From positions 1 through 36,043 of the IMG/VR virus record IMGVR_UViG_2693429599_000012: 36,043 nucleotides of DNA, one strand, 5' to 3'. Numbering within the stretch: position 1 is the first letter of the stretch; the number at the start of each line of letters is the position of its first letter. Origin of the DNA: a virus (lineage: Duplodnaviria > Heunggongvirae > Uroviricota > Caudoviricetes). Positions 1 to 35,052 of the stretch are shown piece by piece. The notes beneath the pieces were generated by a model, which ran no database searches, was not told the origin of the DNA, and saw only the letters and a program-made list of their open reading frames with translations. The position numbers and the translations under genes were made by a program.

Positions 1-351
1 ATGCGAGAGACAGTCGAAATTATGCGTTATCCCGTCACTCTTACACCCGCGCCGGAAGGCGGTTATATGGTTTCTTTTGTGGATATCCCTGAAGCGTTGA
101 CCCAGGGCGAAACTGTCGCTGAAGCGATGGAAGCGGCAAAAGATGCTTTACTGACCGCATTTGATTTTTATTTTGAAGATAACGAGCTTATCCCTTTACC
201 TTCGCCATTAAATAGTCACGATCACTTTATTGAAGTACCTTTGAGCGTCGCCTCTAAGGTATTGCTGTTAAATGCTTTTTTACAGTCAGAAATCACTCAG
301 CAAGAGTTAGCCAGGCGAATTGGCAAACCTAAATGTTGTAAACCCCAATAA
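1..351 (+). CDS. hicB: HicB-family antitoxin-like protein, C-terminally truncated or divergent
   Basis: ORF from ATG at 1 (alternative ATG at 22, MRYPVTLTPAPEGGYMVSF...). The first ~105 aa match my recollection of enterobacterial HicB through ...ITQQELARRIGKPK, then the ORF ends with CCKPQ-stop instead of continuing through the C-terminal DNA-binding region. No hicA is in the window. Confidence 0.6.
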   Translation: MRETVEIMRYPVTLTPAPEGGYMVSFVDIPEALTQGETVAEAMEAAKDALLTAFDFYFEDNELIPLPSPLNSHDHFIEVPLSVASKVLLLNAFLQSEITQQELARRIGKPKCCKPQ

Positions 352-362
352 CTAAAATTTTT

Positions 363-396
363 GCAATAAAAAAGCCCCATCACAAGGACAGGGCTA
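363..396 (-). terminator. Putative rho-independent terminator for the 415-720 minus-strand gene
   Basis: On the minus strand a short GC stem (AGCCC...GGGCT) is followed by TTTTTTATTG, immediately downstream of the stop of the minus gene. Confidence 0.35.
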
Positions 397-414
397 TAGA
401 ATCAATCACTTACA

Positions 415-720
415 TCACTTAATATCTTTCATTTTACGGATACGCGCGCTTGCTTCCGGTAGTTCATCCAGTGTTACGTGATAAGCAAGCATACAGACAG
501 GAGTCGGATCGAATCCCTCATGAGTATTGATCAGATGGCTATTCCCGCCTTTAAATTCATCCTGTCCATCCCACATAGCGTACACGTCATCTTCTGCTAC
601 ATAGATAATCAATCCAATAGGGGAGTTAGTAAGCTGGAAGATGCAGCCAGTAGAATCAATACGATGTTCCCGAACGTCATCAACAGTTTCAAATTCAATC
701 TTAATATCTTTAGTCTTCAT
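415..720 (-). CDS. Hypothetical protein (101 aa)
   Basis: Intact ORF with a GAGGG Shine-Dalgarno 6 nt upstream of the ATG and a terminator-like hairpin downstream. No family recognised. Confidence 0.5.
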   Translation of the reverse strand: MKTKDIKIEFETVDDVREHRIDSTGCIFQLTNSPIGLIIYVAEDDVYAMWDGQDEFKGGNSHLINTHEGFDPTPVCMLAYHVTLDELPEASARIRKMKDIK

Positions 721-1019
721 GATTTGCCCTCGCGTGAAAAATATTTTCGATTATTTATAAAAAAGACTTGACAAAATCAAAAGGTACTGTTCCACGGGTG
801 AAATAAAGCGAGTTTTCGGCACCCCGGTATTTGATGTGCGTGTGAGATTTCAAAACAGGTGCAGTGCAGCCCACCAGCGCGGTCGCTACGCGACTATTAA
901 CACCAGCCAATCCCTTTCCCTGCCTCGATCTTTCCCTTCGTTATAAAGCGTTTTAGGCGCTCTCCTGAATGCGCAGATCAGATAAATAATTTTACGCAAA
1001 TTTAATGGAGGATAACCGG

Positions 1020-1574
1020 ATGAAAGAAGAATTAACCCTTACAGAAATTTCCCGCTTATACGGCTATACAATTAACGCCGCTAAGAAATGGTTAGAAAGG
1101 GGTCTACCCTATAATACCAATAGCCGTCGCGTGCCAGCCAAAGAAGGAACAGAATGGGTCCTAAAGAACATCATCAACCCGCTTAAAGAAACTACGGTCA
1201 AGGAACAAATCGACGTAGAGAAATTGCGACGGGAAAGAGCATTAGCAGATGCAGCCGAACGAGAGAACCAGGAAGCGATGAATCTCCTGATTCCCGTCGG
1301 GTATGTGGAGCAGGAGCTAGCGGAATACTGCGGGAAAGTGAAGCAGACTATTTTGCAGATCGCCACAATCGACGCTTTAGAAATTCTCGAATCTGCGAGT
1401 GACCAGAAAACATTAAAGAATAAGCTAAGGGAGATTATCGAGCGTCGTTTAAATGAAGTAGGTGACTTGTTCGAAAATGCAGATTTGGGAGAAGACGAGG
1501 AAGAAGAATTACCATTAATGGATGAACCGGAAGAACAAGAACCAGAAGAAGACGATGAATTTGATGTGTCTTAA
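1020..1574 (+). CDS. Nu1-like DNA-binding protein, candidate terminase small subunit, with acidic C-terminal tail
   Basis: GGAGGA RBS 7 nt upstream of the ATG at 1020 (ORF track starts at 1005). N-terminal HTH-like LTLTEISRLYGYTINAAKKWLERGLPY and a following EKLRRE segment resemble lambda Nu1 architecture. C-terminus is strongly acidic (EDEEEELPLMDEPEEQEPEEDDEFD). Confidence 0.45.
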   Translation: MKEELTLTEISRLYGYTINAAKKWLERGLPYNTNSRRVPAKEGTEWVLKNIINPLKETTVKEQIDVEKLRRERALADAAERENQEAMNLLIPVGYVEQELAEYCGKVKQTILQIATIDALEILESASDQKTLKNKLREIIERRLNEVGDLFENADLGEDEEEELPLMDEPEEQEPEEDDEFDVS

Positions 1575-1624
1575 AACGCGTTATAAATAAATGTATGAAA
1601 GATGTTGAACGGGTCAACGTCTAC

Positions 1625-1650
1625 GGGGGAGAACATCCCCCGCTTAACTT
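1625..1650 (+). terminator. Weak hairpin downstream of the Nu1-like gene
   Basis: GGGGGA-gaaca-TCCCCC stem followed by GCTTAACTTTT; the T-tract is weak. Confidence 0.25.
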
Positions 1651-1668
1651 TTAAGAGGATATAAAACT

Positions 1669-1953
1669 ATGGCTACTTTTATTACCTATGCTGTCATCAT
1701 TACTATTCTGGCTGCTATCTCTGCTTATAAACTCGGAACCGAACCGAAAGAACGAGGCGAATTATTCTTAGGTGCGTTTGTTGCATTTGCTAGCCTTGCG
1801 TTAATTGTCGAAGGGATTTCTTATATTGTTGGCCTAGTTAGTATGACACTTTTTAACTTCCATCCGGCTATTTCTATGCATCTACTGCTTACTGTATGCT
1901 GGGTATATTGCTTAATCGAATTTTTAACGTTTGTTTTCAAACAGACTAAATAA
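1669..1953 (+). CDS. Small integral membrane protein (94 aa, about 3 predicted TM segments)
   Basis: AAGAGGA RBS; three hydrophobic stretches (FITYAVIITILAAISAY, LFLGAFVAFASLALIVEGISYIVGLV, LLLTVCWVYCLIEFLTFVF); followed by two strong terminators. Confidence 0.55.
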   Translation: MATFITYAVIITILAAISAYKLGTEPKERGELFLGAFVAFASLALIVEGISYIVGLVSMTLFNFHPAISMHLLLTVCWVYCLIEFLTFVFKQTK

Positions 1954-2112
1954 TATTGTAATCTGCCTTTTCTCCTTATGTGGTTTTAACAGGGAATTTT
2001 CGAAAGAGAGTTCCCGATTAAAAGCCATAAAACACATTCAGTACAGTGTTTTCATAGTCAGTGATCTATACAACATAAAAACATAACAAGTATAGATTGA
2101 GTATTAATCCTC

Positions 2113-2138
2113 CCGCCCCTTCGGGGGCGGTTATTTTT
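2113..2138 (+). terminator. Rho-independent terminator with TTCG tetraloop
   Basis: CCGCCCC-TTCG-GGGGCGG (7 bp stem) followed by TTATTTTT. Confidence 0.65.
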
Positions 2139-2215
2139 CTGGCTTTACTAGATAATGTAGCATTATGTTCATTATAACCTCATCTTTGTTGTGCAAACCT
2201 AACCTAAACTTACTA

Positions 2216-2240
2216 GGGACTCTTCGGAGTCCCTTTTTTT
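2216..2240 (+). terminator. Rho-independent terminator with TTCG tetraloop, possibly bidirectional
   Basis: GGGACTC-TTCG-GAGTCCC followed by TTTTTTT; it abuts the stop codon of the convergent minus-strand gene. Confidence 0.65.
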
Positions 2241-3180
2241 ATTGGCAGTAAGAAAAGTTAGTACCGTACATTTCATCATGAAGCATTGCAGCATTGCGTT
2301 TCTGTTCTTCTTCCTCATCTTCTACATCACTAGAAAAATGAGATTTGCCCTTAAAAGAACGAAGTAATTGCAGTGCAGCCATCGGATCACGCATCACATC
2401 GATTTTCACTTCTACTTCATCATTTGCGGCCTCATCAGCCGCGTTTTCAACTACTGCCACCGGAGCAACTTCTTTAGCTTTCAGTTCTTCAATTTCAGCT
2501 TTCTGGGCTTCGATAATCTGGTCTTTTTCTTCCAGTGCAGCTTTCAGTTCTGCGATCTGTGCTTCCAGTGCAGCAAAGCGATCTTCAACAACCGGAGAAA
2601 CAGCATTCACCTGTGCTTCCAGTTCCAGAAATGCTTCGCAAGATTCAATACGTTCTTTCTCTTCACCTTCATAAGCAACCAGTTCTACAACTTCTTTTTC
2701 GGTAGCGTGGCTGTTAAAGAAAACAGCAAAGTAAGGATTGCCGGATTTAGTGAAGTTCAGTTTAGCTTTTCCGGTAACTTCTTTACGACGACCGAAGGTG
2801 ATCTGGCAATCAGCGGTATCCTGAAAATCCATGTTAGGAGCGGAAACGATAGCAGTATCACCAGCAATAACCAGGTGGAACAGTTCAGAAGAGTTCTTAA
2901 CGGTAAAAGTAACGATGTGGTCTACTGCAACGTCTTTAGCAGGTTTAACGCGGTCGATTGCTTTACGAATGCCGTTAGGCAGTTTACCGTCAACACCAAA
3001 GCCAGCCGCGATCAGTGCTTCACGATGTGCTTTAAAGCCAGCGAAAGCGGATTTCTGCTGTGCAAAGGAAACATGAGCAACAACTTTCGGCTGAATCTTC
3101 TTGTTTGCTTCGGTGCCAAATTTGATAACTGCTTTAGCGTTGGTTACTTCGTTAGTGAAAAAGTTAGCGGAAAATAACAT
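2239..3180 (-). CDS. Hypothetical protein (~313 aa): N-terminal globular region, central coiled coil, acidic C-terminal tail
   Basis: GGAG RBS upstream of the ATG at complement 3178-3180 (the ORF track extends to 3243 but the internal start has the RBS). Heptad-like segment AALEAQIAELKAALEEKDQIIEAQKAEIEELKAKE and acidic DVEDEEEEQ tail. No family assigned. Confidence 0.55.
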   Translation of the reverse strand: MLFSANFFTNEVTNAKAVIKFGTEANKKIQPKVVAHVSFAQQKSAFAGFKAHREALIAAGFGVDGKLPNGIRKAIDRVKPAKDVAVDHIVTFTVKNSSELFHLVIAGDTAIVSAPNMDFQDTADCQITFGRRKEVTGKAKLNFTKSGNPYFAVFFNSHATEKEVVELVAYEGEEKERIESCEAFLELEAQVNAVSPVVEDRFAALEAQIAELKAALEEKDQIIEAQKAEIEELKAKEVAPVAVVENAADEAANDEVEVKIDVMRDPMAALQLLRSFKGKSHFSSDVEDEEEEQKRNAAMLHDEMYGTNFSYCQ

Positions 3181-3291
3181 TATAAATACTCCGTGGAAAG
3201 TTAGTTTTAATTGTTCATCGCAAAAGCCTCCTTGTTGCCGCAAGGGGGCTTTTTTATTTTTAAAGCCATCATATAATTCTCAGTCAAAGTA

Positions 3292-3474
3292 TCAGTAAAC
3301 CTCGGCGGTAATCTTTACTTTAATGTCATACTTCTTTAAGAGTTTATGAAAGGTTGATTTATCGATACCCTCATTTTTAAACCACTCTTCAATTCTCACA
3401 CCCGGCGTTAACTCAAAGTAGCGTTTAGCCATTTCTAAGATGATTTCGCGAGTGAACTTAACAGGTCGTGCCAT
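3292..3474 (-). CDS. Small HTH DNA-binding protein (60 aa), resolvase/Hin-type HTH-like
   Basis: Sequence MARPVKFTREIILEMAKRYF...GIDKSTFHKLLKKYDIKV; paralogous to the 6619-6852 product and to the C-terminus of the 6881-7483 product. Confidence 0.55.
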   Translation of the reverse strand: MARPVKFTREIILEMAKRYFELTPGVRIEEWFKNEGIDKSTFHKLLKKYDIKVKITAEVY

Positions 3475-3514
3475 CTCGAATCCTCCTACAATGTGGATTA
3501 ATGATTTCTTAAAA

Positions 3515-3529
3515 AAGAGCGTTAACCGC
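3515..3529. promoter_or_regulatory. Perfect palindrome GAGCGTTAACCGCTC upstream of the small HTH gene; candidate operator
   Basis: 5-bp inverted arms around TTAAC, about 40 bp upstream of the minus-strand start codon at 3474. Confidence 0.3.
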
Positions 3530-3993
3530 TCACTATTATTTATATGGGGATTGTATTTTATTTTTCAACCCCTCACATTTATCTCTTATATATGTATTTA
3601 TAACAGAGATATGTTAAAATGTTATTCAGATGTTATCAGACGTGTTAAATGTGTTAAACCGCAGCACGAATTGCTAAAGAGAAGAACACGAATTAACCAA
3701 ATTGATGTTTATTCAATCAATTTAGAAAAATGCATAGCACTTTTTGCTAAAGCGGTGAGCATTAATTGAGCTATGAATTGTAAAGATTTGTTACAAGATT
3801 TTCTCTCAGATCCAAATCTTAACAGACATATAACAATTTAACATGGTGATAACAATAGGAAGGAAAATCGGTAAATTTTCACTTTCAATACAAATATTAT
3901 AACATATTTATCTCGAATTGTCAAGTATACCACCGATCCTACACAGTGTCAACAAAGGATTTTCAAACCTACACTAACCCTACACTATGAAAA

Positions 3994-4233
3994 TTGCCCC
4001 CGAATTTTTGCCCCCGAACAAAATCCCCAAGATTCTACTATCCCATTTTTGCCCCTGAAACCCTATATTTTTGCCCCTGAAATTCTGGGACACGGTGATT
4101 TTGCCCCTCATTTTTGCCCCTGAAATGCCAATAATTGCCCCTGAAAATCTAATTTTTGCCCCTGAAATTTGCCCCCGAAAAGGATTGGTGAGAAAAACTC
4201 TTTATAAAACATTAACTTAGCGAGGGGCAAAAG
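3994..4233. repeat. Iteron-like array: 9 direct copies of TTGCCCC(T/C)GAA(A) plus one inverted copy
   Basis: Direct copies start at about 3994, 4008, 4049, 4071, 4101, 4114, 4135, 4156 and 4169; inverted copy GAGGGGCAAAAG at 4222-4233. Spacings are 13-14, 21-22, 30 and 41 bp. Confidence 0.8.
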
Positions 4234-4320
4234 CGGGGATCGGGCGTGCATAGATATTATATAACACATTCGCTACGCTCATGTGTAAAACCAAAAACAA
4301 CAAATAACCAAAAAGATATT

Positions 4321-4368
4321 AGGAGGGCGTAGCCCGACTGCGCGAAGCGCCAACCAATTACTTCTAGT
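4321..4368. repeat. Copy 1 of a duplicated ~45 bp element (GGAGG..CG.AGCC.GACTG ... CCAAT.ACTTC)
   Basis: AGGAGGGCGTAGCCCGACTG...CCAACCAATTACTTC, related to 4751-4795 (AGGAGGCGAAGCCGACTG...ACCAATCACTTCC). Confidence 0.5.
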
Positions 4369-4381
4369 AACACTAATTTAA

Positions 4382-4604
4382 ACTAGATGATACTAGATGG
4401 TCTTAGAAGGAATTAACTAGTTTGCTCGCTCGCTTCGCTCACTCTCAAACGTCTGCGACGCCACTGCGTGGCATCGAGAATCACTTTTGAAAGGATTTTC
4501 TTAGAAAGGGATTTTAAACTAGTTACTAACTGATTCTAGAAAGATAGTAATAATCACTTTGAAGATAATAGTAGTTAACTGGTTACTAGATGATTCTAGA
4601 TCAC
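4382..4604. repeat. CTAG-rich repeat family (ACTAGATGAT(A/T)CTAGA and ~27 bp units AACT(A/G)GTTACTA..TGATTCTAGA)
   Basis: ACTAGATGATACTAGATGG at 4382-4400; units at 4517-4543 and 4577-4604; palindromic AACTAGTT at 4414-4421. Confidence 0.6.
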
Positions 4605-4750
4605 TTTAATGATCATGAAAGGTATTGGTATCCCTTCGGGATTGCAACCTTCGGTTGCTAAATTGCTTCCTGATTATAATTTCTCCAAAAGAAAGATTCT
4701 TATATTCTAAAGATACTTCTTCGTTTTGATGATGATTTAATCAAAATCTA

Positions 4751-4795
4751 TGAAGGAGGCGAAGCCGACTGAATACCAATCACTTCCAAATTAGA
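4751..4795. repeat. Copy 2 of the duplicated ~45 bp element
   Basis: See 4321-4368; lies about 70 bp upstream of the 4863 gene. Confidence 0.5.
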
Positions 4796-4862
4796 CAAAA
4801 ATTTCTCGTTATAAATAATAGTGAACTTACTTTGATTCACTTTCTTTTAGAGGATTACCACT

Positions 4863-5315
4863 ATGATCAATACTAAAACTCCTTTCGTACTTCTGGGTCT
4901 GAACCATGATGATAATCTGGATATGATGCATGTTTTCGCTAATCGTGGTTATAACATCATTCGTCATTCCGAAGACTCCAATTTCTCAACTGCTTTCTAT
5001 GCTTTTAAACGTAATGGACGCCCTACGGTGATCGTAGACTGCTTTACTGATGAAGGTCGTGAACAATACAACAACATTCCGGCAATTATTGTTCGTGATG
5101 ACCTGCCTTTTGATGTTCGTGAATATGACGTTGATTTAGGCTCTTACTACGGGATCGCGGATCTTGACCAGATTATGGCTGATTATGGTAAACAACCCGC
5201 TCAGGAAGCCCCAGAACACGATGAACAAGACGAAGATGACGACGACTACACACCAATCTGTTTCTCTTCTCACGGTGGCTTCTACGGTTACGATGAAGGC
5301 TTAGATATGCTGTAA
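4863..5315 (+). CDS. Hypothetical acidic protein (150 aa)
   Basis: GAGGA RBS; C-terminal acidic run QEAPEHDEQDEDDDDY; first plus-strand gene after the repeat region. Confidence 0.55.
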   Translation: MINTKTPFVLLGLNHDDNLDMMHVFANRGYNIIRHSEDSNFSTAFYAFKRNGRPTVIVDCFTDEGREQYNNIPAIIVRDDLPFDVREYDVDLGSYYGIADLDQIMADYGKQPAQEAPEHDEQDEDDDDYTPICFSSHGGFYGYDEGLDML

Positions 5316-5337
5316 TTTAGGTCAACCCTTTGGCGTC

Positions 5338-5379
5338 TTGTCAAGGGGTATTGACAAAATTTTCTGACTTTTTTATGAT
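5338..5379 (+). promoter_or_regulatory. Sigma70-type promoter (TTGACA-N17-TATGAT) with overlapping perfect inverted repeat TTGTCAA-N6-TTGACAA
   Basis: -35 TTGACA at 5351-5356, 17-nt spacer, -10 TATGAT at 5374-5379; palindrome arms at 5338-5344 and 5351-5357. Confidence 0.6.
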
Positions 5380-5437
5380 TATCGCACTTGACAACTTTGA
5401 ACCTATTTGACCTAGATTTGTAAAGAGGATGTTAATT

Positions 5438-5584
5438 ATGAACACTACTAAGAAAGTTGATGGACGTAAAAACCCGAACCGCAAACCGTGGACCCCAAAC
5501 CTGAATTTCTCAATGGTTGACTTCCATGAACGCCAGCGTCGCATTCAAGAAGAAATTGATCGCGCGATTGCTGAATCTAAATGA
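5438..5584 (+). CDS. Small basic protein (48 aa), hypothetical
   Basis: AAGAGGA RBS 8 nt upstream of the ATG; sits between the promoter and the Rha gene. Not in the ORF track because it is under 60 aa. Confidence 0.4.
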   Translation: MNTTKKVDGRKNPNRKPWTPNLNFSMVDFHERQRRIQEEIDRAIAESK

Positions 5585-5672
5585 GATAAAAACTTCTTAT
5601 AAATAAAATTGTTCCGGTAGTGATGCCGGAACTAGGAGGATCATCACTAAACCGTTTAAGGGGGATTTTACT

Positions 5673-6500
5673 ATGAATACTGTTACTACTATGAATACCG
5701 CTGTTAAAACTGCTTCCGTGTCTCTGGTTGTTGATAACACCAAACCGCTGACCATGTCTTCTCGTCAGATTGCTGAATTTACCGATAAGAAGCACAGCAA
5801 TGTAATGCGCGATATTCGCGAAATGTACGAATCTTTAGGTATTATCGATCAGCTCAAAACTGAATTTGTCGAGAGAATCAATAACTTAGGATATGCTGTT
5901 AAAGAACCAGTATATCACTTAGACGAAGAAATGACGCTGACTCTTGTCACTGGTTACGATGTTAAGCGTCGAATGGTTGTTATTCAGGAATGGAAGCGAC
6001 TGAAAGAAGAAAATGAAAAACTGCGTCAGGAACGTTTAGCCGTTAACCCGTATGCAGACTTTGAAGAAACCGACTGGATCGAACTGGCATTAAAGAAAAC
6101 TCGCGAAAATAAAAAGCTGATTGAACTTCATGTTCGCAAATCAGTAGATAGCCATTCAATGACCCGTCTGTTAGGCGCTAAAAAGGGCGCTACGAAGGTT
6201 AAAGAAGCACTAACGGCCTTGCGTACTGCTGGCTACATTGAGCGCGTCTACGATGAAAATAACAAGCCGTGTGGGTATGTTGCTAATGACTCTTCTCTGT
6301 CTTTCTGCCGCATGAATGCTCACTACCAACTTGAATTTACTGTTGATGTTCTTCCTGTGTTGGTTGAATTGGGTATTCTGGAAGAAGAACAAAAAGCAAC
6401 TCTGAATCTTCCTAAGCCGAACAACACTATTCTGATTCAAAACAAAGCGGCTGAACGTCTCCGCCAGAATGTTGGATCACTGGAAGTCTTCGGACTGTGA
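5673..6500 (+). CDS. Rha-family phage regulatory protein / antirepressor
   Basis: N-terminal motif LTMSSRQIAEFTDKKHSNVMRDIREM is typical of the phage pRha domain; AGGGGGA RBS; terminator downstream. Confidence 0.75.
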   Translation: MNTVTTMNTAVKTASVSLVVDNTKPLTMSSRQIAEFTDKKHSNVMRDIREMYESLGIIDQLKTEFVERINNLGYAVKEPVYHLDEEMTLTLVTGYDVKRRMVVIQEWKRLKEENEKLRQERLAVNPYADFEETDWIELALKKTRENKKLIELHVRKSVDSHSMTRLLGAKKGATKVKEALTALRTAGYIERVYDENNKPCGYVANDSSLSFCRMNAHYQLEFTVDVLPVLVELGILEEEQKATLNLPKPNNTILIQNKAAERLRQNVGSLEVFGL

Positions 6501-6506
6501 TTAATC

Positions 6507-6537
6507 GCCCGGCGCATAATTGCGCTGGGCTTTTTGT
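6507..6537 (+). terminator. Rho-independent terminator after the Rha gene
   Basis: GCCCGGCGC-ataatt-GCGCTGGGC followed by TTTTTGTAT. Confidence 0.55.
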
Positions 6538-6580
6538 ATCTGGTGATCTAACCAATTTTGCTCAGATTGTTTTACATACA

Positions 6581-6603
6581 AAAAAGCCACTCCGAAGAGT
6601 GGC
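6581..6603 (-). terminator. Rho-independent terminator for the minus-strand HTH operon
   Basis: On the minus strand GCCACTC-TTCG-GAGTGGC followed by TTTTTT. Confidence 0.55.
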
Positions 6604-6618
6604 AAAGAGAATCAAAAC

Positions 6619-6852
6619 TCAAAAACCTGTTGCTTCTACGATCTGACCATCACCGATCTGAACATAGAATTTAATGTCTAACTTCTTCATATTCTTATAG
6701 AATTGGGCGATTGAGATCCCATGTTCACTAAGAATCTGTTCTTTCGCTTCCTTACCACGATCCGCTGTATAGTAAGCGTAGGCAATATCAGCCATCTGTT
6801 CAGCGTTAAAACGGGCAGGACGACCGCGAGTAGCTTTAGTAGTCATAGTCAT
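6619..6852 (-). CDS. Small HTH DNA-binding protein (77 aa), paralog of the 3292-3474 product
   Basis: RGRPARF motif plus HTH GISIAQFYKNMKKLDIKF aligning with GIDKSTFHKLLKKYDIKV. Confidence 0.55.
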   Translation of the reverse strand: MTMTTKATRGRPARFNAEQMADIAYAYYTADRGKEAKEQILSEHGISIAQFYKNMKKLDIKFYVQIGDGQIVEATGF

Positions 6853-6880
6853 TTCTCCAAATTAAAGTGAATGTTCACCT

Positions 6881-7483
6881 TTATTTAGAGGACTTACATT
6901 TTATCGGAAAAAGTTCTCCATCGTCAATACTCATAAAGAACTCTGCCTTAATCCCGTACTTCTTCAACCGTGAATAGTATGTACCCCGACTTATATCAAC
7001 CTTGCGAAGCACTTCAAAGAACCCTTTAGGATCGTTGTAATAGTGGCTATAACGCACGTTAGCGAGTTCTACAAACAATTCCCTTGTATCACCATAGCCT
7101 TTCTTGAATGCCTCGTTACGATAGCGTGTAACAGCGTGATTCAATCTCTTCTGTTTCAACACTTCTCGGATCGGCTTCCATTGCAACCGATAGACCGGAC
7201 CGTCATCAATCCTGTAAAACCGCTTGATATCAAAATCAAACCAATCTCGGACTCTCTGGAACTCTGTATGTGATGTTCTATGCTTCTTAAAGAAGTTGTG
7301 AACGTCTGTATAACCATTATCGCGGTAAAACTCTATTAAAATCTCTTTCGCTTCCTCACGACTAAAGCCAGATGTTGTGTAGTCGGTTTTTAAATGCTTA
7401 TGCTTAACTGGTAAACGATATTCATGATCGGTACAAGACAAGGCTAATTCTAATTCATCTCTTTGTTGTTGATTAATTAGCAT
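6881..7483 (-). CDS. Hypothetical protein (200 aa) with C-terminal HTH of the same family
   Basis: C-terminal ISRGTYYSRLKKYGIK matches the HTH of the two small paralogs; N-terminal domain unassigned. Confidence 0.5.
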   Translation of the reverse strand: MLINQQQRDELELALSCTDHEYRLPVKHKHLKTDYTTSGFSREEAKEILIEFYRDNGYTDVHNFFKKHRTSHTEFQRVRDWFDFDIKRFYRIDDGPVYRLQWKPIREVLKQKRLNHAVTRYRNEAFKKGYGDTRELFVELANVRYSHYYNDPKGFFEVLRKVDISRGTYYSRLKKYGIKAEFFMSIDDGELFPIKCKSSK

Positions 7484-7570
7484 ACAACCCCCTTAAATCT
7501 TAATACCCGTATTTATCAAAAAATCAACAATTTAATAAATACCTTCATATTTCGTAATGAGGGTAATTAC

Positions 7571-9475
7571 ATGAAACTAATTTCTAATAAGGCCAAATTA
7601 AAAAAGATTCTTAAAAATATCTCTGCTGCAATTCGACCGCCTAAAGCCATGAAACCTAGCGAATGGGTAGAGGCTAATGTAGTTGCTACCGATGGTGTTA
7701 AAGCCGGATCGCTAATTAAATTGCATCCCTTCCAACGTGGAATGATGGACGCGATCACCGAAGACCGTAGAAAAATTGTGTTTAAATGTTCGGCGCAGTT
7801 GGGTAAGACCATGATTCTTAACGGAATTATCTTCCATCGGATCGCGAGTAACCCTACTAATATTGGGGTCTTGCAAAGTAACGTTAGGGAACTAAATTCT
7901 TGGATCGCTGGTAAGGTGAAGCCAGTATTAGAGGCAACGCCAGAATTAAAAGCGATGATCACCGACAAATCAGATCGCAATGCCGTTAACAACTCATCGA
8001 TTATTCAGCTTCGTAACGGATCGTTTATGTATTTCATGTCGTTGAATAGTCCGTCACATCTTCGCGGTAAAACACTCCCTTTGATTATTCTTGATGAAGT
8101 TGATGCGGCTGATGAGTCAGACGAAGGGAACCCGATCCAGCTAGCGGAACAACGCGCAACCACTTTCGGGGAAGATGCAAGGATCGTAATTGCTTCCACT
8201 CCAACCGCTCGTGATGGGGCGATTAACCAACAATGGGAACTCTCGGATAAGAGAAAATATCATGTCGTTTGCCAGCATTGCGGACACAAGCACGTAATGG
8301 AATGGAGTAACGTACATTTCGATTGGCATACGATTAACGGTAAATCATTACCCAACCCAGATACAGCCGTTTACCGTTGCCCTGAATGTGAAACCGACTG
8401 GACCGAAGGGGATCGCCTCCGTGCTGTTGCTCAGGGAGAATGGGTCGCCACCGAACCTAATGCGGAAGTAATCGGTTTTCATGCTAACCGCCTTATGTCT
8501 CCGTTTAGTTCTATCCGTGCGTGTGTGGTGGACTTTGCTGATAGCTACGCGAATATGTCGCTGGCAACGTTCTATAATGTGGTGCTCGGTGAAACCTTCG
8601 ATGATCTTAACGAAGATCGCACAGCCGACGAACTGGAAACGCTGAAAACTGATATTAGCCTAGACAATATTCCTGATGATGTACTGGCTCTGGTAGGTGG
8701 AGTTGACCAGCAAAAAGACCGTCTGGAATCTACCTTGCTGGGTATCTCTCGTAAGGGGATATGCGTAGTTGATCACCGATCATTCTATGATGTGAACTGC
8801 GAACGCCACGAATCGCCAGCATATGACCAGCTTTATAACTTCCTGAAAGCGAAATTCTATACCCGATCCGGTGAACGAATCCCGATGCTATCTGCTTTCG
8901 TGGACTCATCGAACGGACGAGCTACAAACGTGATCTACCGTTTTTGCACTAGGTGGCAAAACCTATGCGCCATTAAAGGCGCAAGTAATGCTGATGCTCC
9001 AATCCTTCCGGCTAAGGACACAAGAACGGGTGGTTTTACCCTTAAAATTCTGGGCGTAAACAACCTTAAAACGATGATCCGTGAAATGATTAACCGGAAC
9101 TTGAGAGACAGCGATCCTCATACGGTCTTCCAGATTGGCGACGTTCCTGATGACTATTGCGAGCAATTGCTTTCTGAACAGTTGAAACGGCAGGGTAATA
9201 CCACACGTTGGGTAAAAGTTGGTCAGCAACGAAACGAGGCTCTCGACTGCCTGGCTTATTCCTATGCTGCTTCTCGCCATGTACTCAATAAAATGTCATG
9301 GGAAAAACTCGAAGCCATCAAAGATAGTTTGAACCGTGAACCAGAAGAATCCGTAGAAGCTCCTAAATCGCAATCTGACGAGAAAATAGAAGAAACTAAG
9401 CCAATCACACGACCACAACGTAAAAACATCGCCAGACGCCCAAATAGAGGCCGTAGCTGGGTAACATCGTTCTAA
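7571..9475 (+). CDS. Terminase large subunit (lambda GpA-like)
   Basis: Walker A-like KCSAQLGKT and Walker B-like LIILDEVD; HPFQRGMMDAI near the N-terminus; 634 aa; positioned upstream of the portal gene. Confidence 0.85.
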   Translation: MKLISNKAKLKKILKNISAAIRPPKAMKPSEWVEANVVATDGVKAGSLIKLHPFQRGMMDAITEDRRKIVFKCSAQLGKTMILNGIIFHRIASNPTNIGVLQSNVRELNSWIAGKVKPVLEATPELKAMITDKSDRNAVNNSSIIQLRNGSFMYFMSLNSPSHLRGKTLPLIILDEVDAADESDEGNPIQLAEQRATTFGEDARIVIASTPTARDGAINQQWELSDKRKYHVVCQHCGHKHVMEWSNVHFDWHTINGKSLPNPDTAVYRCPECETDWTEGDRLRAVAQGEWVATEPNAEVIGFHANRLMSPFSSIRACVVDFADSYANMSLATFYNVVLGETFDDLNEDRTADELETLKTDISLDNIPDDVLALVGGVDQQKDRLESTLLGISRKGICVVDHRSFYDVNCERHESPAYDQLYNFLKAKFYTRSGERIPMLSAFVDSSNGRATNVIYRFCTRWQNLCAIKGASNADAPILPAKDTRTGGFTLKILGVNNLKTMIREMINRNLRDSDPHTVFQIGDVPDDYCEQLLSEQLKRQGNTTRWVKVGQQRNEALDCLAYSYAASRHVLNKMSWEKLEAIKDSLNREPEESVEAPKSQSDEKIEETKPITRPQRKNIARRPNRGRSWVTSF

Positions 9476-9481
9476 TAACTC

Positions 9482-9505
9482 GCCGTCCTTCGGGGCGGCT
9501 TACTC
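9482..9505 (+). terminator. Weak hairpin with TTCG loop after the terminase gene
   Basis: GCCGTCC-TTCG-GGGCGGC stem with one G-U pair; poor T-tract. Confidence 0.3.
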
Positions 9506-9547
9506 CTAAATATTGTTAATCCAATAACAATTAAATAAGGGGTAATT

Positions 9548-10042
9548 ATGAGTTTAGAACTAATTCCCTTAGTAATTCGTAAAGGCGAAAAAATCACGCT
9601 GGCGAATGAAGAGGGTGTAACAATTCAGGTAGGTAATAGCAAAGGCATTGTCTATCGGGTCGATGATGCACCGGAAAATCACGAGATTAAAACGTTAGAC
9701 TTTCCAGAAGGGAAGATGACCATTGTTATTACTCTTGATGAAGAACTGGTATCAATGCAGGAATTAACTGTATTGCCAGTATTCGCCAAACAATCCAAAA
9801 AAGAACATCTGCGGGAAACTATCGCCTTAATCGAGCAAGTTATTTTCGCCCGTTTATCTGGGGACGAAGCCGCATTATCTCAAATGACCGTGAAAGGGAA
9901 TACTTTCGCTTATGAGTCATTGGGTGTTCTCCAGCAATTAAAGACTGATTATGAACGTCAGTTATCAAAATTAATTCAAGCCGAACGACGTAAACAGGGA
10001 ATTAGCCCGATTAAAAATATCAAATTACGTCTTACGCGATAA
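9548..10042 (+). CDS. Hypothetical protein (164 aa) between terminase and portal
   Basis: AAGGGG RBS; position analogous to a head completion gene. No motif recognised. Confidence 0.5.
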   Translation: MSLELIPLVIRKGEKITLANEEGVTIQVGNSKGIVYRVDDAPENHEIKTLDFPEGKMTIVITLDEELVSMQELTVLPVFAKQSKKEHLRETIALIEQVIFARLSGDEAALSQMTVKGNTFAYESLGVLQQLKTDYERQLSKLIQAERRKQGISPIKNIKLRLTR

Positions 10043-11609: not shown

Positions 11610-13610
11610 ATGCTTAAATTTCGCCGCGAACTTAACGGTTACGGTGGAGTTATTAACGAAGGGCATAACGATCAATACGAATTTGAAATTGCTTTCTCCA
11701 GTGAACAGCCTTATCAGCGCCAATTCTGGGATGAGCAAAATCAAGAAATGGTGGTATTAGATGAAATTCTGGTACATACACCGGAAGCGGTTGATCTGTC
11801 TCGTCTGAATAATAACGCTCCGTTGCTGTTTAATCATAATTTCGATAATCACATTGGCGTCGTTTGTAACGCTCGAATCGATGCGGATAAAGTAGGCCGT
11901 GCGACCGTTAGATTCTCTAAGCATGGCACTTTGGCTAATGATATTCGCAATAAAGTCATTGAAGGTACGATGGAAAAAATTTCTGTCGGTTATGACATTA
12001 AAGAATATCACATCGATTATGCCAAAGGACAATTGATTGTTACTAAGTTTGTTCCTTTCGAATTAAGTTTTGTTACGGTCCCGGCGGACGATTCGGTCGG
12101 TTTAAATCGCTCTCTAAATACTATCACAGTTAATTTGGAGGCTAAACGCGATATGACTAAAGAACAAATTGAAGAAATCAAAGAAGAACAAGAATCCGCT
12201 CAGGTTGAAGAAACTCCGGTAGAAGAAAATAAAGAATCGGAAGTAGAAGAAACTCAAGAGCGCCAAGTTGAAGAGAATGAAGAAAATGAAAATCTCGAAG
12301 ACGGAAAAGACGCTGAACATCCTGAAAGTGTTGATGATGATAGTTCAACTGTTCGGGAAGCAGAAGAAGTAAAAGAAGAACGTGAAGCCGCTCCGGTTGA
12401 AGAAGAAAAAACCGAGGAAGTGGCTGAACGTTCCGAAGAAGACGAATTAGAAATCCGCGAGATCGCGCGGGAACTAAATATTGACGACGAAGAATTAAAA
12501 CGCGCATTGGCAATTAAAGACATGACGCCGGAAGCATTCCGCACTAAGGCACTAAATAACATTACCAATGCTCAACGTAATAACGAACAAATTAAGGAAT
12601 CTAAAATGGAAAAAACTTTTGACCTGAACAACGTAATTCGCTCTCTGGTAGATGGTGCTGCTCTGGGTGCTAACGAAGCCGAGTTTTCTGCTATGGCTGC
12701 TGGTGCTGCAATGCAGCGTGGTCGTGCTGCTCGTGGTGGCTCTGTATTCGTTCCGACTGCTGCTATGCGTGCTGCTGCTGATGGTAACACCAAAACTACT
12801 CTGGAAGCTGTAACCGACGAAAAACTGCTGAATGATTCCTATGTAGCGATGCTGTTACCGGAATCCGTTCTGGGTCGTCTTGGTGTGAAAGTCCTGTCTG
12901 GTCTGACTTCGCCGACTGCTATTCCGAAAATGACCGCTTCCAGCGTTGAATCTTTCGGCTTCGTTGATGAAAACGGTGCTGCACCGGAAGGTAAAGCAGA
13001 ATTTGCAAACGTGAAAATGGCTCCGAAAACTTTTGCTGGTGGCAACCCGATCAGCCGTCAGTCTCTGAAAACCGTTCCGGGCATCGCTACCCTGATCACT
13101 GATCACATTAACCAGGCTGTTCGCATCAAACTGGAACAACTGATTCTGTCTGATAAAGATAATGCTCGTGGTCCGGCTGGTGTGATTAAACAACTGGTTG
13201 ATGCAAGCCGTGTTGAGAAGAAAGCTGCTTTCTCTTACAAAGACTTCCTGAAAGAAATCGCTAAACTGACCGACGCTGGCGTTCCTGCTCAGGCGATCAA
13301 GTTTGCGATGAGCGGTGCAACTGCTGCTGAACTGGAATCTACCCTGAAAGATAACGGCGTTTCCGGTTATATCATCGAAAACGGTAAACTGGCTGGTTAC
13401 GAAGTAGTTACTTCTGGTGTTATTCCGGTAGACCACATCGTTCTGGGTGACTTCTCCGCTATTACCATCGGTGAATGGGGCGGTCTTGAGCTAGATCTGG
13501 ACGATTCAACCTACAGAGCACAGGGCGCGATCGTTCCGCGTATCTGGGTAGATCTGGATTATGTTGTTACTCAGCCGGAAGCTCTGAAAGTTCTTCACAT
13601 CTCCGAATGA
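11610..13610 (+). CDS. Fused prohead protease (HK97/U35-like), acidic scaffold-like linker and major capsid protein
   Basis: N-terminal ~170 aa carry protease-like motifs (ISVGY, ELSFVTVPADDSVG); residues ~180-300 are a highly acidic, repetitive linker; the C-terminal ~350 aa look like an HK97-fold capsid protein. Confidence 0.75.
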   Translation: MLKFRRELNGYGGVINEGHNDQYEFEIAFSSEQPYQRQFWDEQNQEMVVLDEILVHTPEAVDLSRLNNNAPLLFNHNFDNHIGVVCNARIDADKVGRATVRFSKHGTLANDIRNKVIEGTMEKISVGYDIKEYHIDYAKGQLIVTKFVPFELSFVTVPADDSVGLNRSLNTITVNLEAKRDMTKEQIEEIKEEQESAQVEETPVEENKESEVEETQERQVEENEENENLEDGKDAEHPESVDDDSSTVREAEEVKEEREAAPVEEEKTEEVAERSEEDELEIREIARELNIDDEELKRALAIKDMTPEAFRTKALNNITNAQRNNEQIKESKMEKTFDLNNVIRSLVDGAALGANEAEFSAMAAGAAMQRGRAARGGSVFVPTAAMRAAADGNTKTTLEAVTDEKLLNDSYVAMLLPESVLGRLGVKVLSGLTSPTAIPKMTASSVESFGFVDENGAAPEGKAEFANVKMAPKTFAGGNPISRQSLKTVPGIATLITDHINQAVRIKLEQLILSDKDNARGPAGVIKQLVDASRVEKKAAFSYKDFLKEIAKLTDAGVPAQAIKFAMSGATAAELESTLKDNGVSGYIIENGKLAGYEVVTSGVIPVDHIVLGDFSAITIGEWGGLELDLDDSTYRAQGAIVPRIWVDLDYVVTQPEALKVLHISE

Positions 13611-15420: not shown

Positions 15421-18400
15421 ATGCAGTCGATCCAATTTAAACGAACTAATGTTTCTGGCAAAAAGCCAACGCCGGAACAATTACAGGTCGGTGAGGTGGC
15501 AATCAACCTTAAAGACCATGTTATTTTTACCAAAGACCGAGATCATGAAGTAGTTCAAATCTCTGTTTCTCCTGAAACTCACGCGGCACTAGAATCTAAA
15601 GTTGATGCTAACAAACAAGAATTGGATAGCACAATTGCAGTAAATGACCGCAATATTCACGCTAAAGTAGATGAAATTAAACAAACTACTGATTCTACTA
15701 TCGCAGCAAATCATGCAGAAATTAACAATAAAGTTGATGTAATTAAACGCGAAACCGACGCGACAATCGAAGCTAATAAAAATAAAGCTGCTTCCGATCT
15801 TGCTGGTGTTAAAGCTGAATTGTCGGATACCATCAACGCTAATAAAAATGCGGCTGCTGTAGCAACTCAGGAACTGGACACCCGCATCAATAAAAAAGTT
15901 GATGATATTAAATCCCGTACAGATGCAACCATCGCAAGCAATGACAAAGCAATCAATGACAAAGTTGATTTGATTAAGACAGAAACTGACCGCACTATCG
16001 CAGCAAATAAAGTCTATGCGGAAAATCAGTTAACTGACACCTACAATAACCTTACTGGTGTGATTGCAGCCAATAAGCAAGAGGCAGCGGATAACGTTGC
16101 GGCATTAACCCGTGATGTTGAAGCCAAAAATACAGCAATTCATAGCAAAGTTGACAATAACAAGTCTTACACTGATTCTGAACTGGCACGTTTAGAAAGC
16201 CGTATTGATGCAGCCGATGGATCTGCTGATGGCAAGTACATCAAAAAACACGTAAACACTTATACTGATGGTTATTTGCTGTCTAAGACCGCAAACTATT
16301 TTGATGATCCAAATGCGCGTAATCTTGATTACTTTGGTGCATTCCGCATGAATGACCTGGCGGGTCATATTGCAATGATCTTGCATGTTCCGCATCCATC
16401 TGGTGTTAATCATGCTCGTGGCTTTGAGTTCACTTATGGGTCTAATCCGGTTCATACGGTAAGAACATACGGCTATGATGAATTGGGTCATTTGGCATAT
16501 TCTCACCGCATGTATCATGAAGGTGATAAACCTACTCCTGCCGAAATTGGCGCATATTCGAAAGCAGAAATTGACCGACTGTTCCAGAAGACGCTTAATT
16601 TTGGGATCGAGGGTGGTTGGTTTAAACTAGGCACTTTGACAATGCCACAGCAACACGGTCGTAGTGCTAAGATCCGCTTAGTTGGTGGTAACGGTTATAA
16701 CGTCGGGATGAATGGACAAGCCAATATTATCGAATTGGTGATTCGATGCGGCAACAATAGCCCGAAAGGTGTTGTATTCAATGCGTATTATACTATTTGG
16801 CATTATGAACAACATTTTTGCGCTATTCCAACCGATGGCGACAATTACGATCTTTACGCTTACTACGGTGCACATACAGGATTTGTTTTAGCAGAATATC
16901 AAGTTTCTTCCGGTGGTGTTTCTTTAAACCTGTTGGATACTCCTGAATATCTGGGTGGTGAAAAACCTGTTGCAGATGAAATTTTTGATGCTCTTAACAT
17001 TTCATCGTTCAATAACTTTAGCAACCGTGGAACGTTAAATTTTGCGGGAAACCATCAAGGCCAATACGACATTGAGCATTTGAACGAACAACAAACAAAT
17101 GCTAAGAAAATGTTGCGTCGCTTCCGTAGTTCTGCTCCTGCCACTATCTGGCACGAAAGTGTTGATGACCAAAATTATCGTCTTGCTACTGGATATACCG
17201 ATGTAAACCAACAATTATTGCTTTCAGTTGCGACCGGTTTGCATATTCGTAGATTGACCATCGATGGTGGCTTAGGTTCCGGTTCTAATGCTGGTATTGA
17301 TATTCGTCGAGGACCAAACGAAGCAAGCCATTTTAATTTCATGGATTATCGCACTGGACAAGATGTTCGTAATGGCTGGTTTGGTTTTGGTGATTTGACG
17401 ACCAAAGATTTTATTTGGTGGAACGATAACGGTCAAAACTCTATAAACCTGATTGAAGATGGTGAATTACATATTACTGGTGGTAAAGGCCAGAAAATTG
17501 TAATGAATAGCGAAGTTGCATTATCTGAAAATGCTCGTTTGGCTGTCAAAGGCGGTAACTATGGTTTGATGTTACGCAATGATGGTTCTAGCTTCCATAT
17601 TCTTACTACCGATTTAAAAGATTCTTTTGGTAGTTGGAATAATCGCAGACCATTTAGTTATGATTTCGCCGAAGGTGGATTAGATCTAGGTGGTACTGAA
17701 ACTGCTCGTTGTTTGCATCTGGGGATCGATGGTAGTACCCGCATCGAAGATAACTTAGTTTTCAGAGCGGGATCACGTCAATCAATGGACTATATTGAAA
17801 TGATCCATTGGGGTAACAGTAATACAGGACGCAACAACGTTTTGAGTATGCGGGATTCCAAAGGATTCTTGGCTGAATTTGAACGTGTAGGCGGGACCAA
17901 CGGCGTTAAAACCAGATTCTTTGGTGAAACCTTCACTGACGGTACATTATACCTAAATCAGATGAATAATAGCTCTGAACGATTCTCTATCAATAATTGG
18001 GGAAATTCAGAAGTTGGTCGCGCGGCAGTGATGGAAGTCGGTGATTCCAAAGGTTATCACTTCTATACGGAACGTAGGACAGATGACACCGTTTTGTTTG
18101 ATGTATCCGGTTCTTTGACCGTGCATGGACCTAACGGAATAACCGTCAAAAACTCAACTGGTGCACGCCATATCTGGTTTAGAGATGATAGCGATACGGA
18201 AAAGGCTGTTATCTGGGCTACAGATGAGGGTATGTTACATATACGAAATAATCATGAGGGTTCATTTGCTCATCACTTCCAGGGCGCAATGATTAAACTG
18301 GAAGGGCGTGTTCCTTATGCCGCAGATCAAGGACTTATCCGTGGTGAGGTTTCTGGTGGTGCATATGTTGCATGGAGAGACCGACCTGCTGGTTTGTTGG

Positions 18401-35034: not shown

Positions 35035-35052
35035 ACCATTTCCAAACAAAAA

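Follow-up and report, generated by a model that had tools for sequence, protein, structure and literature searches.

The closest known counterpart of the system described here is the terminase of phage lambda, in which the gpA enzyme requires the small subunit Nu1 and in which the two genes belong to one late operon, nu1 (191-736) overlapping A (711 onward) by 26 nucleotides (nt). Non-adjacent terminase genes are already known from phage P2, whose subunit families differ from those considered here. We describe the terminase genes of a prophage contained in a stretch of 36,043 nt from a member of the Caudoviricetes (IMG/VR record IMGVR_UViG_2693429599_000012, positions 1 to 36,043); this whole stretch is called the window. 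In it a divergent small-subunit gene of the lambda Nu1 family, terS (1020-1574), and a gene for a gpA-type large subunit, terL (7571-9475), lie in separate transcription units with an early region between them. The distance from the terS stop to the terL start is 5,996 bp, which bears out the gap of ~6 kb pointed out in an earlier reading of this DNA that used no database searches (the sequence-only reading). We consider it probable that the two genes encode a lambda-type two-subunit terminase whose genes are unlinked around the early region. Though unusual, this layout is stable, and the packaging system of which it is a variant is well known.

The open reading frame (ORF) of terS runs from 1005 to 1574; its actual start is the ATG at 1020, which lies behind GGAGGA, and homologues begin with MKEE. 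The sequence-only reading had called the product Nu1-like, and profile searches agree over the full length of the protein. Residues 2-173 of the 184-aa TerS match positions 5-190 of the 199-position profile of PHROG 57 (E=3.6e-14), which is lambda Nu1's own family (Nu1 itself scores 2.5e-76). A profile of 11 homologues aligned by hhalign to lambda Nu1 residues 2-125 gives a probability of 96.4% (E=1.3e-9, ~20% identity), and the match to Nu1 reaches residue 107, into the coiled-coil region. Searched against the PDB with hmmsearch, the homologue profile finds the Nu1 DNA-binding domains 6hn7_B and 1j9i (E ~1e-3), and the Pfam family most often matched among the homologues is Phage_Nu1 (PF07471; 6 of 11, best E=1.4e-4, short of the Pfam cut-off). 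The AlphaFold2 (AF2) model of TerS has a mean pLDDT (predicted local distance difference test) of 70, and of 79-86 across the first 50 residues. It consists of a winged helix-turn-helix (wHTH) domain (a strand, helices 7-13 and 18-26, and a strand at 37-39), helices 40-88, 93-125 and 129-152, and a disordered acidic tail; in a Foldseek search with this model 1j9i ranked second, with a probability of 0.97 and a root-mean-square deviation of 2.3 Å over 52 columns. The ratio of nonsynonymous to synonymous substitution rates (dN/dS) of terS against four relatives is 0.06-0.12, and judged from these coding sequences the gene is under strong purifying selection. PGAP/RefSeq labels it 'hypothetical protein' in nearly all of the 63 complete E. 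coli genomes that have the gene, with one exception among those listed. A different small terminase elsewhere in the genome, the existence of which the sequence-only reading had considered, was looked for in PHROG scans of ~40 prophage ORFs, and no second TerS-like protein was found.

The large subunit is of the lambda gpA type. TerL carries a GpA_ATPase domain (PF05876, 5.3e-62, residues 50-291) and a GpA_nuclease domain (PF20454, 2.5e-46, residues 301-571), both far past the cut-offs, and matches PHROG 15 at 6e-143. Downstream of its gene come those for head-tail joining, a lambda-family portal and a protease-capsid fusion, and further on siphovirus tail genes and an endolysin; the morphogenesis genes in the window are all intact.

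The separation of the two genes, with several terminators and opposite-strand genes in the space, is shared by the window and all members of the lineage. Every relative found in Escherichia, Salmonella and Proteus has terS and terL apart, at TerS identities of 53-97%; the gap is 5.6 kb in Proteus columbae, 6.3-6.4 kb in Salmonella and 6-8.6 kb in IMG/VR contigs and other E. coli genomes. The order of the genes is likewise common to the lineage: a gene for a small membrane protein, a minus-strand gene of 310-380 aa, a 60-aa helix-turn-helix (HTH) gene, an iteron-bearing noncoding stretch of ~1.4 kb, the gene of the acidic 150-aa protein, Rha (in most, not all, relatives), one or more minus-strand HTH genes, and terL. 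Since this order is the same even where TerS is only 53-69% identical, the arrangement is old. A scan of a genome collection holding one genome per species gave a single locus, in Rouxiella sp. T17 (L004; such L numbers are our handles for the loci of relatives). Here the TerS homologue, 32% identical and matching PHROG 57 at 1e-19, ends at 10531, and a gpA-type terL, 38% identical to that of the window, starts at 10446, giving an overlap of 86 nt. The adjacency of terS and terL is a trait of genome layout rather than of the protein, and the split layout is likely an ancestral rearrangement relative to the Rouxiella type. The other of the two closest homologues outside the lineage (TerS 31-32% and TerL 38-43% identical) is found in GenBank PQ671644.1, 'Escherichia phage DCP80' (L001/L003), where TerS- and TerL-type genes are both present. 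Positions 1 to ~26,290 of that record (26.3 kb) come from a small phage of gpA/Nu1 type that is related to the prophage, and this fragment has terS at its end; the record is chimeric, because T4-like genes follow in the rest of it (motA, rIIA in two copies of opposite orientation, gp41, gp44), and its taxonomy line reads Straboviridae. In the literature we found no description of this prophage or of Nu1/gpA-type genes split by an early region.

The overlap of the Rouxiella homologue with a gpA-type gene and the strong purifying selection on terS make it most likely that the gpA-type TerL has the Nu1-like protein as its packaging partner. The suggestion in the sequence-only reading that it might not be the partner is not supported, given the same two observations and the finding that terS is the only TerS-like gene in the prophage. 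The alternative that survives best, which we nevertheless judge unlikely, is that the Nu1-like protein is a wHTH excisionase or recombination directionality factor of the serine recombinase, or a transcription regulator, and that TerL works alone or with an unrecognised partner. Fold searches do place other wHTH proteins at comparable scores (the excisionases Pukovnik Xis, RdfS and Tn916 Xis, and also BldC/RacA), and PHROG 66 (excisionase and regulator) is weakly matched by lambda Nu1 and by the DCP80 homologue; the similarity of TerS to the Nu1 family, however, spans the whole 184 aa, beyond the wHTH, and it is unlike a small stand-alone excisionase wHTH of 50-100 aa, with 110 residues of Nu1-like helices following the wHTH. 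The position of terS also has two sides. The gene is proximal to the attachment (att) site, in L028 terS and the recombinase gene point away from each other across a single 63-aa ORF, and the transcription unit of terS is separate from the presumed late morphogenesis cluster; yet the Rouxiella homologue overlaps terL as Nu1 overlaps A, in a locus where, over the part scanned, no recombinase was recognised, and the genes that separate terL from the terS-like gene in the DCP80 fragment, for the most part labelled only as hypothetical, include none with a recombinase annotation. Moreover, no other TerS was found for the gpA-type enzyme. We give a still smaller chance to a dual-purpose wHTH factor next to attP that would serve both as small terminase subunit and as a directionality/excision cofactor or regulator of the serine recombinase; if this were true, having terS uncoupled from that presumed late cluster would tie the onset of packaging to excision.

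With TerS taken as the small terminase subunit, the DNA just upstream of its gene is a candidate for the site it recognises. Homology among relatives starts abruptly at 759-767 and continues through terS, so that ~250 bp upstream of the gene are conserved. The sequence-only reading had suggested a possible cos/pac-type site at about 880-940. The motifs it named are present, the palindrome GTCGC-TAC-GCGAC at 882-894 and CTTTCCCT twice only in 36 kb, at 914 and 930, and the element in which they lie is conserved and co-varies with the TerS DNA-binding domain; as isolated motifs they are statistically unremarkable, and it is their conservation that stands out. Of the 20 relatives aligned, 18, each of the E. 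coli type, share without change the 24-mer GCGCGGTCGCTACGCGACTATTAA (877-900) and the 17-mer GATCTTTCCCTTCGTTA (927-943), the flanks of which fall into two sequence types among the aligned relatives. In Salmonella the upstream region is ~68% identical overall, with GCGGTCGCTACGCGAC fully intact. E. coli CFSAN061761 and L029 carry a type-II allele of the TerS N-terminus (YGYSLPAV.KW vs YGYT[IL]NAAKKW), and there the palindrome is replaced by other conserved sequence; in CFSAN061761 homology to the window resumes within terS, at about residue 79. Since the palindrome and the TerS N-terminal domain are swapped jointly, the exchangeable unit is the upstream element together with the DNA-binding domain. 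The CTTTCCCT repeats are similar to the R sites of lambda cosB, CGTTTCC(G/T)TTCT, and three further stretches common to all types, AAAGACTTGACAA at 764-776, TTTCAAAAnnGGTnCAGTnnAGCC at ~846-872 and TAAATAnnATTACGCAnATTT near 975-1000, could be cosN-like or promoter parts. Going by its sequence, the upstream element is a plausible cos or cosB, although an autoregulatory operator would look alike.

Two other candidates for this site were rejected. The intergenic 7484-7570 beside terL, considered as cos, is AT-rich and lacks any symmetric element rich in GC, and its conservation does not exceed that of its flanks. The iteron array of the intervening block, considered as a TerS site (pac/cosB), is of a type that tracks the 313-aa protein encoded next to it, and L006 has another iteron type with a TerS that is 96% identical. 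A metagenome scan with the invariant 17-mer gave 73 matches, 9 of them loci homologous to the terS region by blastn and 64 not. One metagenome contig, ERZ781272 NODE-77 (143 kb; L062 1-170), begins exactly at window position 862, which is 20 nt before the palindrome and falls within the stretch common to all TerS types; this start is uninterpretable as a terminus and could be an assembly break from strain variation.

The large subunit varies in a different way. The TerL alleles of L014, L026, L124 and L125 are 55-59% identical in the catalytic core, while the first ~14-16 and the last ~50 residues stay of the local type, the constant ends corresponding to window 7571-7618 and 9233-9475. The N-terminal 16 residues of TerL form a basic stretch (MKLISNKAKLKKILKN), the tail of TerS an acidic one (EDEEEELPLMDEPEEQEPEEDDEFDVS). 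In lambda the N-terminus of gpA binds Nu1 and its C-terminus binds the portal, and the pattern of constant ends suggests that the partner-binding ends of TerL are retained as adaptors and the ATPase-nuclease core is swapped. There is also a small chance that the unlinking of terS and terL gave three freely reassorting modules, namely cosB with the TerS DNA-binding domain, the TerS tail with the TerL N-terminal adaptor, and the TerL catalytic core. We propose a scheme in which TerS would be produced from its own monocistronic unit at the attL-proximal end and its wHTH would, most likely, bind the conserved element just upstream of terS (the palindrome at 882-894 and the neighbouring repeats). 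The acidic C-terminal tail would then probably contact the basic N-terminus of TerL and so recruit TerL made from the presumed late cluster, after which the gpA-type nuclease would cut close by. With the terminase genes unlinked, TerS would act in trans on TerL. Both the site of cutting and the timing of expression in this scheme are what we infer from the layout.

Several observations weigh against a Nu1/gpA-type pair of this kind, or against parts of the scheme. Pfam Phage_Nu1 (PF07471) misses the TerS of the window itself. The Foldseek E-values are weak and the wHTH fold is also that of excisionases, BldC and RacA, which are among the matches, so that the fold alone is not discriminating. 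No sigma-70 consensus promoter for terS was found on the plus strand. The identities of the two subunits are decoupled: relative to the window, TerS and TerL are 96% and 58% identical in L026 and 90% and 59% in L014, and two Salmonella prophages with TerS identical to each other have TerL 58% and 82% identical to that of the window; the subunits are therefore not strictly co-inherited. The co-variation of the upstream element with TerS is as expected for a cosB-like site, but physical linkage alone could give the same. The cos site may instead lie in the repeat-rich 4240-4860, and the DCP80 fragment starts in a region of similar repeat-and-hairpin character, not beside terS, although blastn finds no significant homology there. 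For the early region, scans against Pfam, PHROG and NCBIfam recognised no family of replication proteins among the genes of the block. That TerS and TerL would form a holoenzyme is deduced from their families and from the comparisons above.

The window is very nearly a single 35.7-kb temperate siphophage genome with a sliver of host DNA; a large serine recombinase integrated the phage into E. coli hicB. In strain ETEC1717 the same prophage interrupts hicB, leaving an N-terminal pseudogene on one side and, ~37 bp past the window end, the C-terminal fragment, and copies inserted in ycdX align to the window only from ~325 onward. The hicB remnant (window 1-351; L002 3710-4021 and 37336-37455) encodes a truncated HicB with the new C-terminus …GKPKCCKPQ, and the upstream hicA is intact; as the prophage truncates the antitoxin gene, integration may alter hicAB toxin-antitoxin control. 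Other integration sites were seen as well (window 325-760; L127 7506-8299; L123 8538-8975): ycdX is truncated in several E. coli genomes, the site in Salmonella is a different one, and in Proteus columbae the prophage adjoins a 145-aa PHP-domain (ycdX-like) gene. The terS region is carried by 63 of 5,426 complete E. coli genomes, in every case on the chromosome, and a search of PLSDB plasmids gave no episomal copy. Variable cargo sits in two slots: that at 415-760 is swapped in many relatives (for instance for an LprI-family gene), homology returning at 759-767, and the second is the right arm at 31-33 kb, with nuclease-like genes in the window and variable GIY-YIG or helicase genes in relatives. 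A single 666-aa ORF (11610-13610) fuses the major capsid protein with the prohead protease (Peptidase_S78). A 1,176-aa tail-fibre-like gene (15421-18951), similar to the T-even long tail fibre distal subunit, lies between the head and tail-tube genes. Rfam found no RNA family in window 1-10000, and nowhere in the prophage did we recognise a classical repressor of the CI/Cro type.

It could be argued that such a gene order belongs to a decaying or scrambled prophage and has no functional meaning, an explanation to which we assign a low probability. Some copies are indeed defective. The ETEC1717 copy, otherwise the closest to the window, is so because of a 3.5-kb deletion (L002 8513-9618) equivalent to window 5316-8822, with which Rha and the HTH genes are gone and terL, short of its first two-thirds, is reduced to a 633-bp remnant; the terL deletion is found in ETEC1718 too, others have insertion sequences (IS), and E. 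coli BS74R-D and KSC64 are examples of lysogens with an intact copy. In the window itself, in contrast, the morphogenesis genes are intact and terS is under purifying selection, and the layout recurs in 63 E. coli genomes and other genera, at hicB, ycdX and other sites, a recurrence that implies recent mobility. Megablast of window 1-10000 found nothing among 50,697 phage records, so that at the DNA level the phage collection contains no isolate of this type, but DNA of a related element is present in the phage-lysate assembly DCP80, the sole relative found by tblastn against the phage database.

The block between terS and terL is the phage's own mosaic early/regulatory region and not an accessory island. 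Its contents as listed in the sequence-only reading, a membrane protein, a minus-strand gene bracketed by terminators, repeat-dense noncoding DNA, an acidic protein, Rha and minus-strand HTH genes, are all in place (Table 1). They form several separate transcription units bounded by hairpin terminators, and the regulators and iteron array of the prophage are confined to them, with only structural, lysis, nuclease and integrase genes elsewhere. The expectation that the block might vary among relatives held in that segments are swapped within a mosaic that includes two variable slots, for example 1652-1945, which is exchanged in most relatives; it did not hold for the overall order, which is the same in Escherichia, Salmonella and Proteus. 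Homologues of the acidic protein (151-155 aa) occupy the same position in Proteus, Salmonella and L018, and terL is adjoined upstream by a 201-aa homologue of the 200-aa HTH protein in Proteus and by a 200-aa ORF at the same position in L029.

At the centre of the block are the 313-aa protein and the iterons. Eight exact copies of TTGCCCCYGAA lie at 3994-4179 and none elsewhere in the window, where ~0.9 would be expected; 0 of 100 shuffles reached 9. In other alleles the array is made of CCTACACTA or GTAGCATTTGAA and stands beside a protein with a different N-terminal half, and relatives without the 313-aa gene of the window also lack the TTGCCCCYGAA iterons. Three iteron sequences thus pair with three N-terminal domains of the 310-380-aa minus-strand protein, in arrays of ~10 iterons (protein/array: window 2239-3180 on the minus strand/3994-4237; L018 3235-4236/5097-5224; L028 3596-4729/6484-6737). 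The 313-aa protein has no relative in Pfam, PHROG, NCBIfam or the PDB, and its allelic variants against PDB and Pfam gave coiled-coil noise only; homology searches return only near-identical hypothetical proteins. From this pairing the 310-380-aa coiled-coil protein is probably a new initiator or regulator family, forming with the iterons a protein/repeat specificity module that may serve replication (as origin and initiator) or control (as operator and regulator), with neither reading favoured. A replication origin within the block is accordingly what we infer rather than observe, as the 313-aa protein is without known relatives; DnaA boxes are not enriched. The 313-aa protein is far more widespread in E. 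coli than terS, with one cluster on at least 1,000 contigs.

Other repeats were noted in the block. The HTH paralogues at 3292-3474, 6619-6852 and 6881-7483, all on the minus strand, have a common C-terminal motif (...F.K..KK.DIK), of which the DNA repeat family D4 at 3320, 6671 and 6948 is the counterpart at the DNA level; the 200-aa protein seems to hold the module twice. The motif TTATAAATAA occurs at 1581, 3535 (minus), 3595 (minus), 4809 and 5597, 45-120 bp upstream of several block genes, and these copies are probably -10-like promoter elements; intergenic repeats of the T4-like portion of DCP80 share 20-22 nt with the copy at 1579-1600.

The remaining explanation, raised in the sequence-only reading, is that a recent accessory (moron or defence) island was inserted between once-adjacent terS and terL, and despite the overlapping pair in the distant relative Rouxiella, the mosaic nature of the block with its swappable segments and its GC content of 0.35-0.38 at 3000-5500 (window ~42%), we find it very improbable, the ordered architecture of the block being common to Escherichia, Salmonella and Proteus members with TerS only 53-69% identical, the only recognisable regulators and the only iteron array of the genome lying within it, and the true cargo slots lying elsewhere, at 415-760 and in the right arm.

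Table 1. Features of the window that bear on the terminase genes and the DNA around them.
Feature	Position	Strand	Basis or remark
Host hicB, 5' part	1-333	+	attL (left junction of prophage) at ~325-335
101-aa ORF in variable cargo slot 415-760, between attL and conserved terS region	415-720	-	no family match
Conserved noncoding region; candidate cos (cosB-like TerS site, possibly cosN), probably also terS promoter	764-1019		alignment of 20 relatives
terS, 184 aa, divergent lambda-Nu1-family small terminase subunit	1020-1574	+	PHROG 57, hhalign, AF2 model
Intrinsic terminator closing the monocistronic terS unit	1624-1642	+	terminator scan: 7-bp stem with 6 GC pairs, T-rich tail
94-aa hydrophobic protein, variable slot	1669-1953	+	ORF list; no family match
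313-aa coiled-coil protein	2239-3180 (3243)	-	hairpin terminators on both sides, 2215-2234 and 3222-3253
60-aa HTH protein	3292-3474	-	weak HTH_Tnp_1 match
Noncoding region, 1.4 kb	3475-4862		contains iterons
Two tandem near-consensus sigma-70 promoters, leftward toward 60-aa and 313-aa genes	3896-3952	-	12/12 and 11/12, extended -10 TG in both
Iteron array, probable origin or operator	3994-4237		8 exact TTGCCCCYGAA copies, a degenerate copy and an inverted copy
Acidic 150-aa protein	4863-5315	+	no family match; in all relatives
Rha-family regulator or anti-repressor	5673-6500	+	Pfam Phage_pRha E=3.2e-12; PHROG anti-repressor families down to 3e-17
HTH-paralogue gene pair, 77 aa (6619-6852) and 200 aa (6881-7483), divergent from terL	6619-7483	-	terminator 6603-6586
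terL, lambda gpA-type large terminase, first gene of morphogenesis cluster (presumed late operon)	7571-9475	+	Pfam, PHROG 15
Large serine recombinase (integrase), right end of prophage	33355-35049	-	Resolvase, Recombinase and Zn_ribbon_recom domains; PHROG 95 integrase 9e-57

The known mechanism of cos packaging is unchanged by these findings; what is new is the gene organisation. Genes for a lambda-type terminase can do without translational coupling and without co-transcription, and the DNA-recognition module (upstream site and TerS N-terminal domain) and the catalytic core of TerL can be exchanged independently. In practical terms, searches for terS that are restricted to the neighbours of terL will miss the gene, and tools for prophage completeness may score such elements as being without a small terminase. 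The lineage is a natural system for asking which parts of Nu1/gpA-type enzymes carry partner specificity, and it could show whether satellites that target Nu1-type TerS (RppC-type phage-inducible chromosomal islands, PDB 6hn7) exploit such phages.

Compared with lambda, the prophage has the same subunit families (PHROG 57/Phage_Nu1 for gpNu1; GpA_ATPase and GpA_nuclease for gpA) and a lambda-family portal, and in a position like that of cosB in the lambda cos (cosQ-cosN-cosB) it has a conserved noncoding element with short T/C-rich repeats, at most 150 bp upstream of the small-subunit gene. It differs in the long disordered acidic tail of TerS and its ~20% identity to Nu1, as well as in the distance between the genes. 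In lambda and phage 21 the specificities of cosB and the Nu1 N-terminus match, and the prophage appears, from sequence alignment, to swap its upstream element and the TerS N-terminal domain as a comparable unit, with the junction inside terS at about residue 79. The order terL, head-tail joining gene, portal and protease-capsid is the same in Rouxiella T17 and DCP80 as in the window; Rouxiella, unlike the window, has a canonical overlapping terS-terL pair, and DCP80 has terS after the endolysin. The small- and large-subunit genes of P2, M and P, are likewise non-adjacent and served by different promoters, but they are only 2.2 kb apart and are spaced by scaffold and capsid genes within the late cluster, whereas the spacer in the prophage is a regulatory, iteron-bearing early region.

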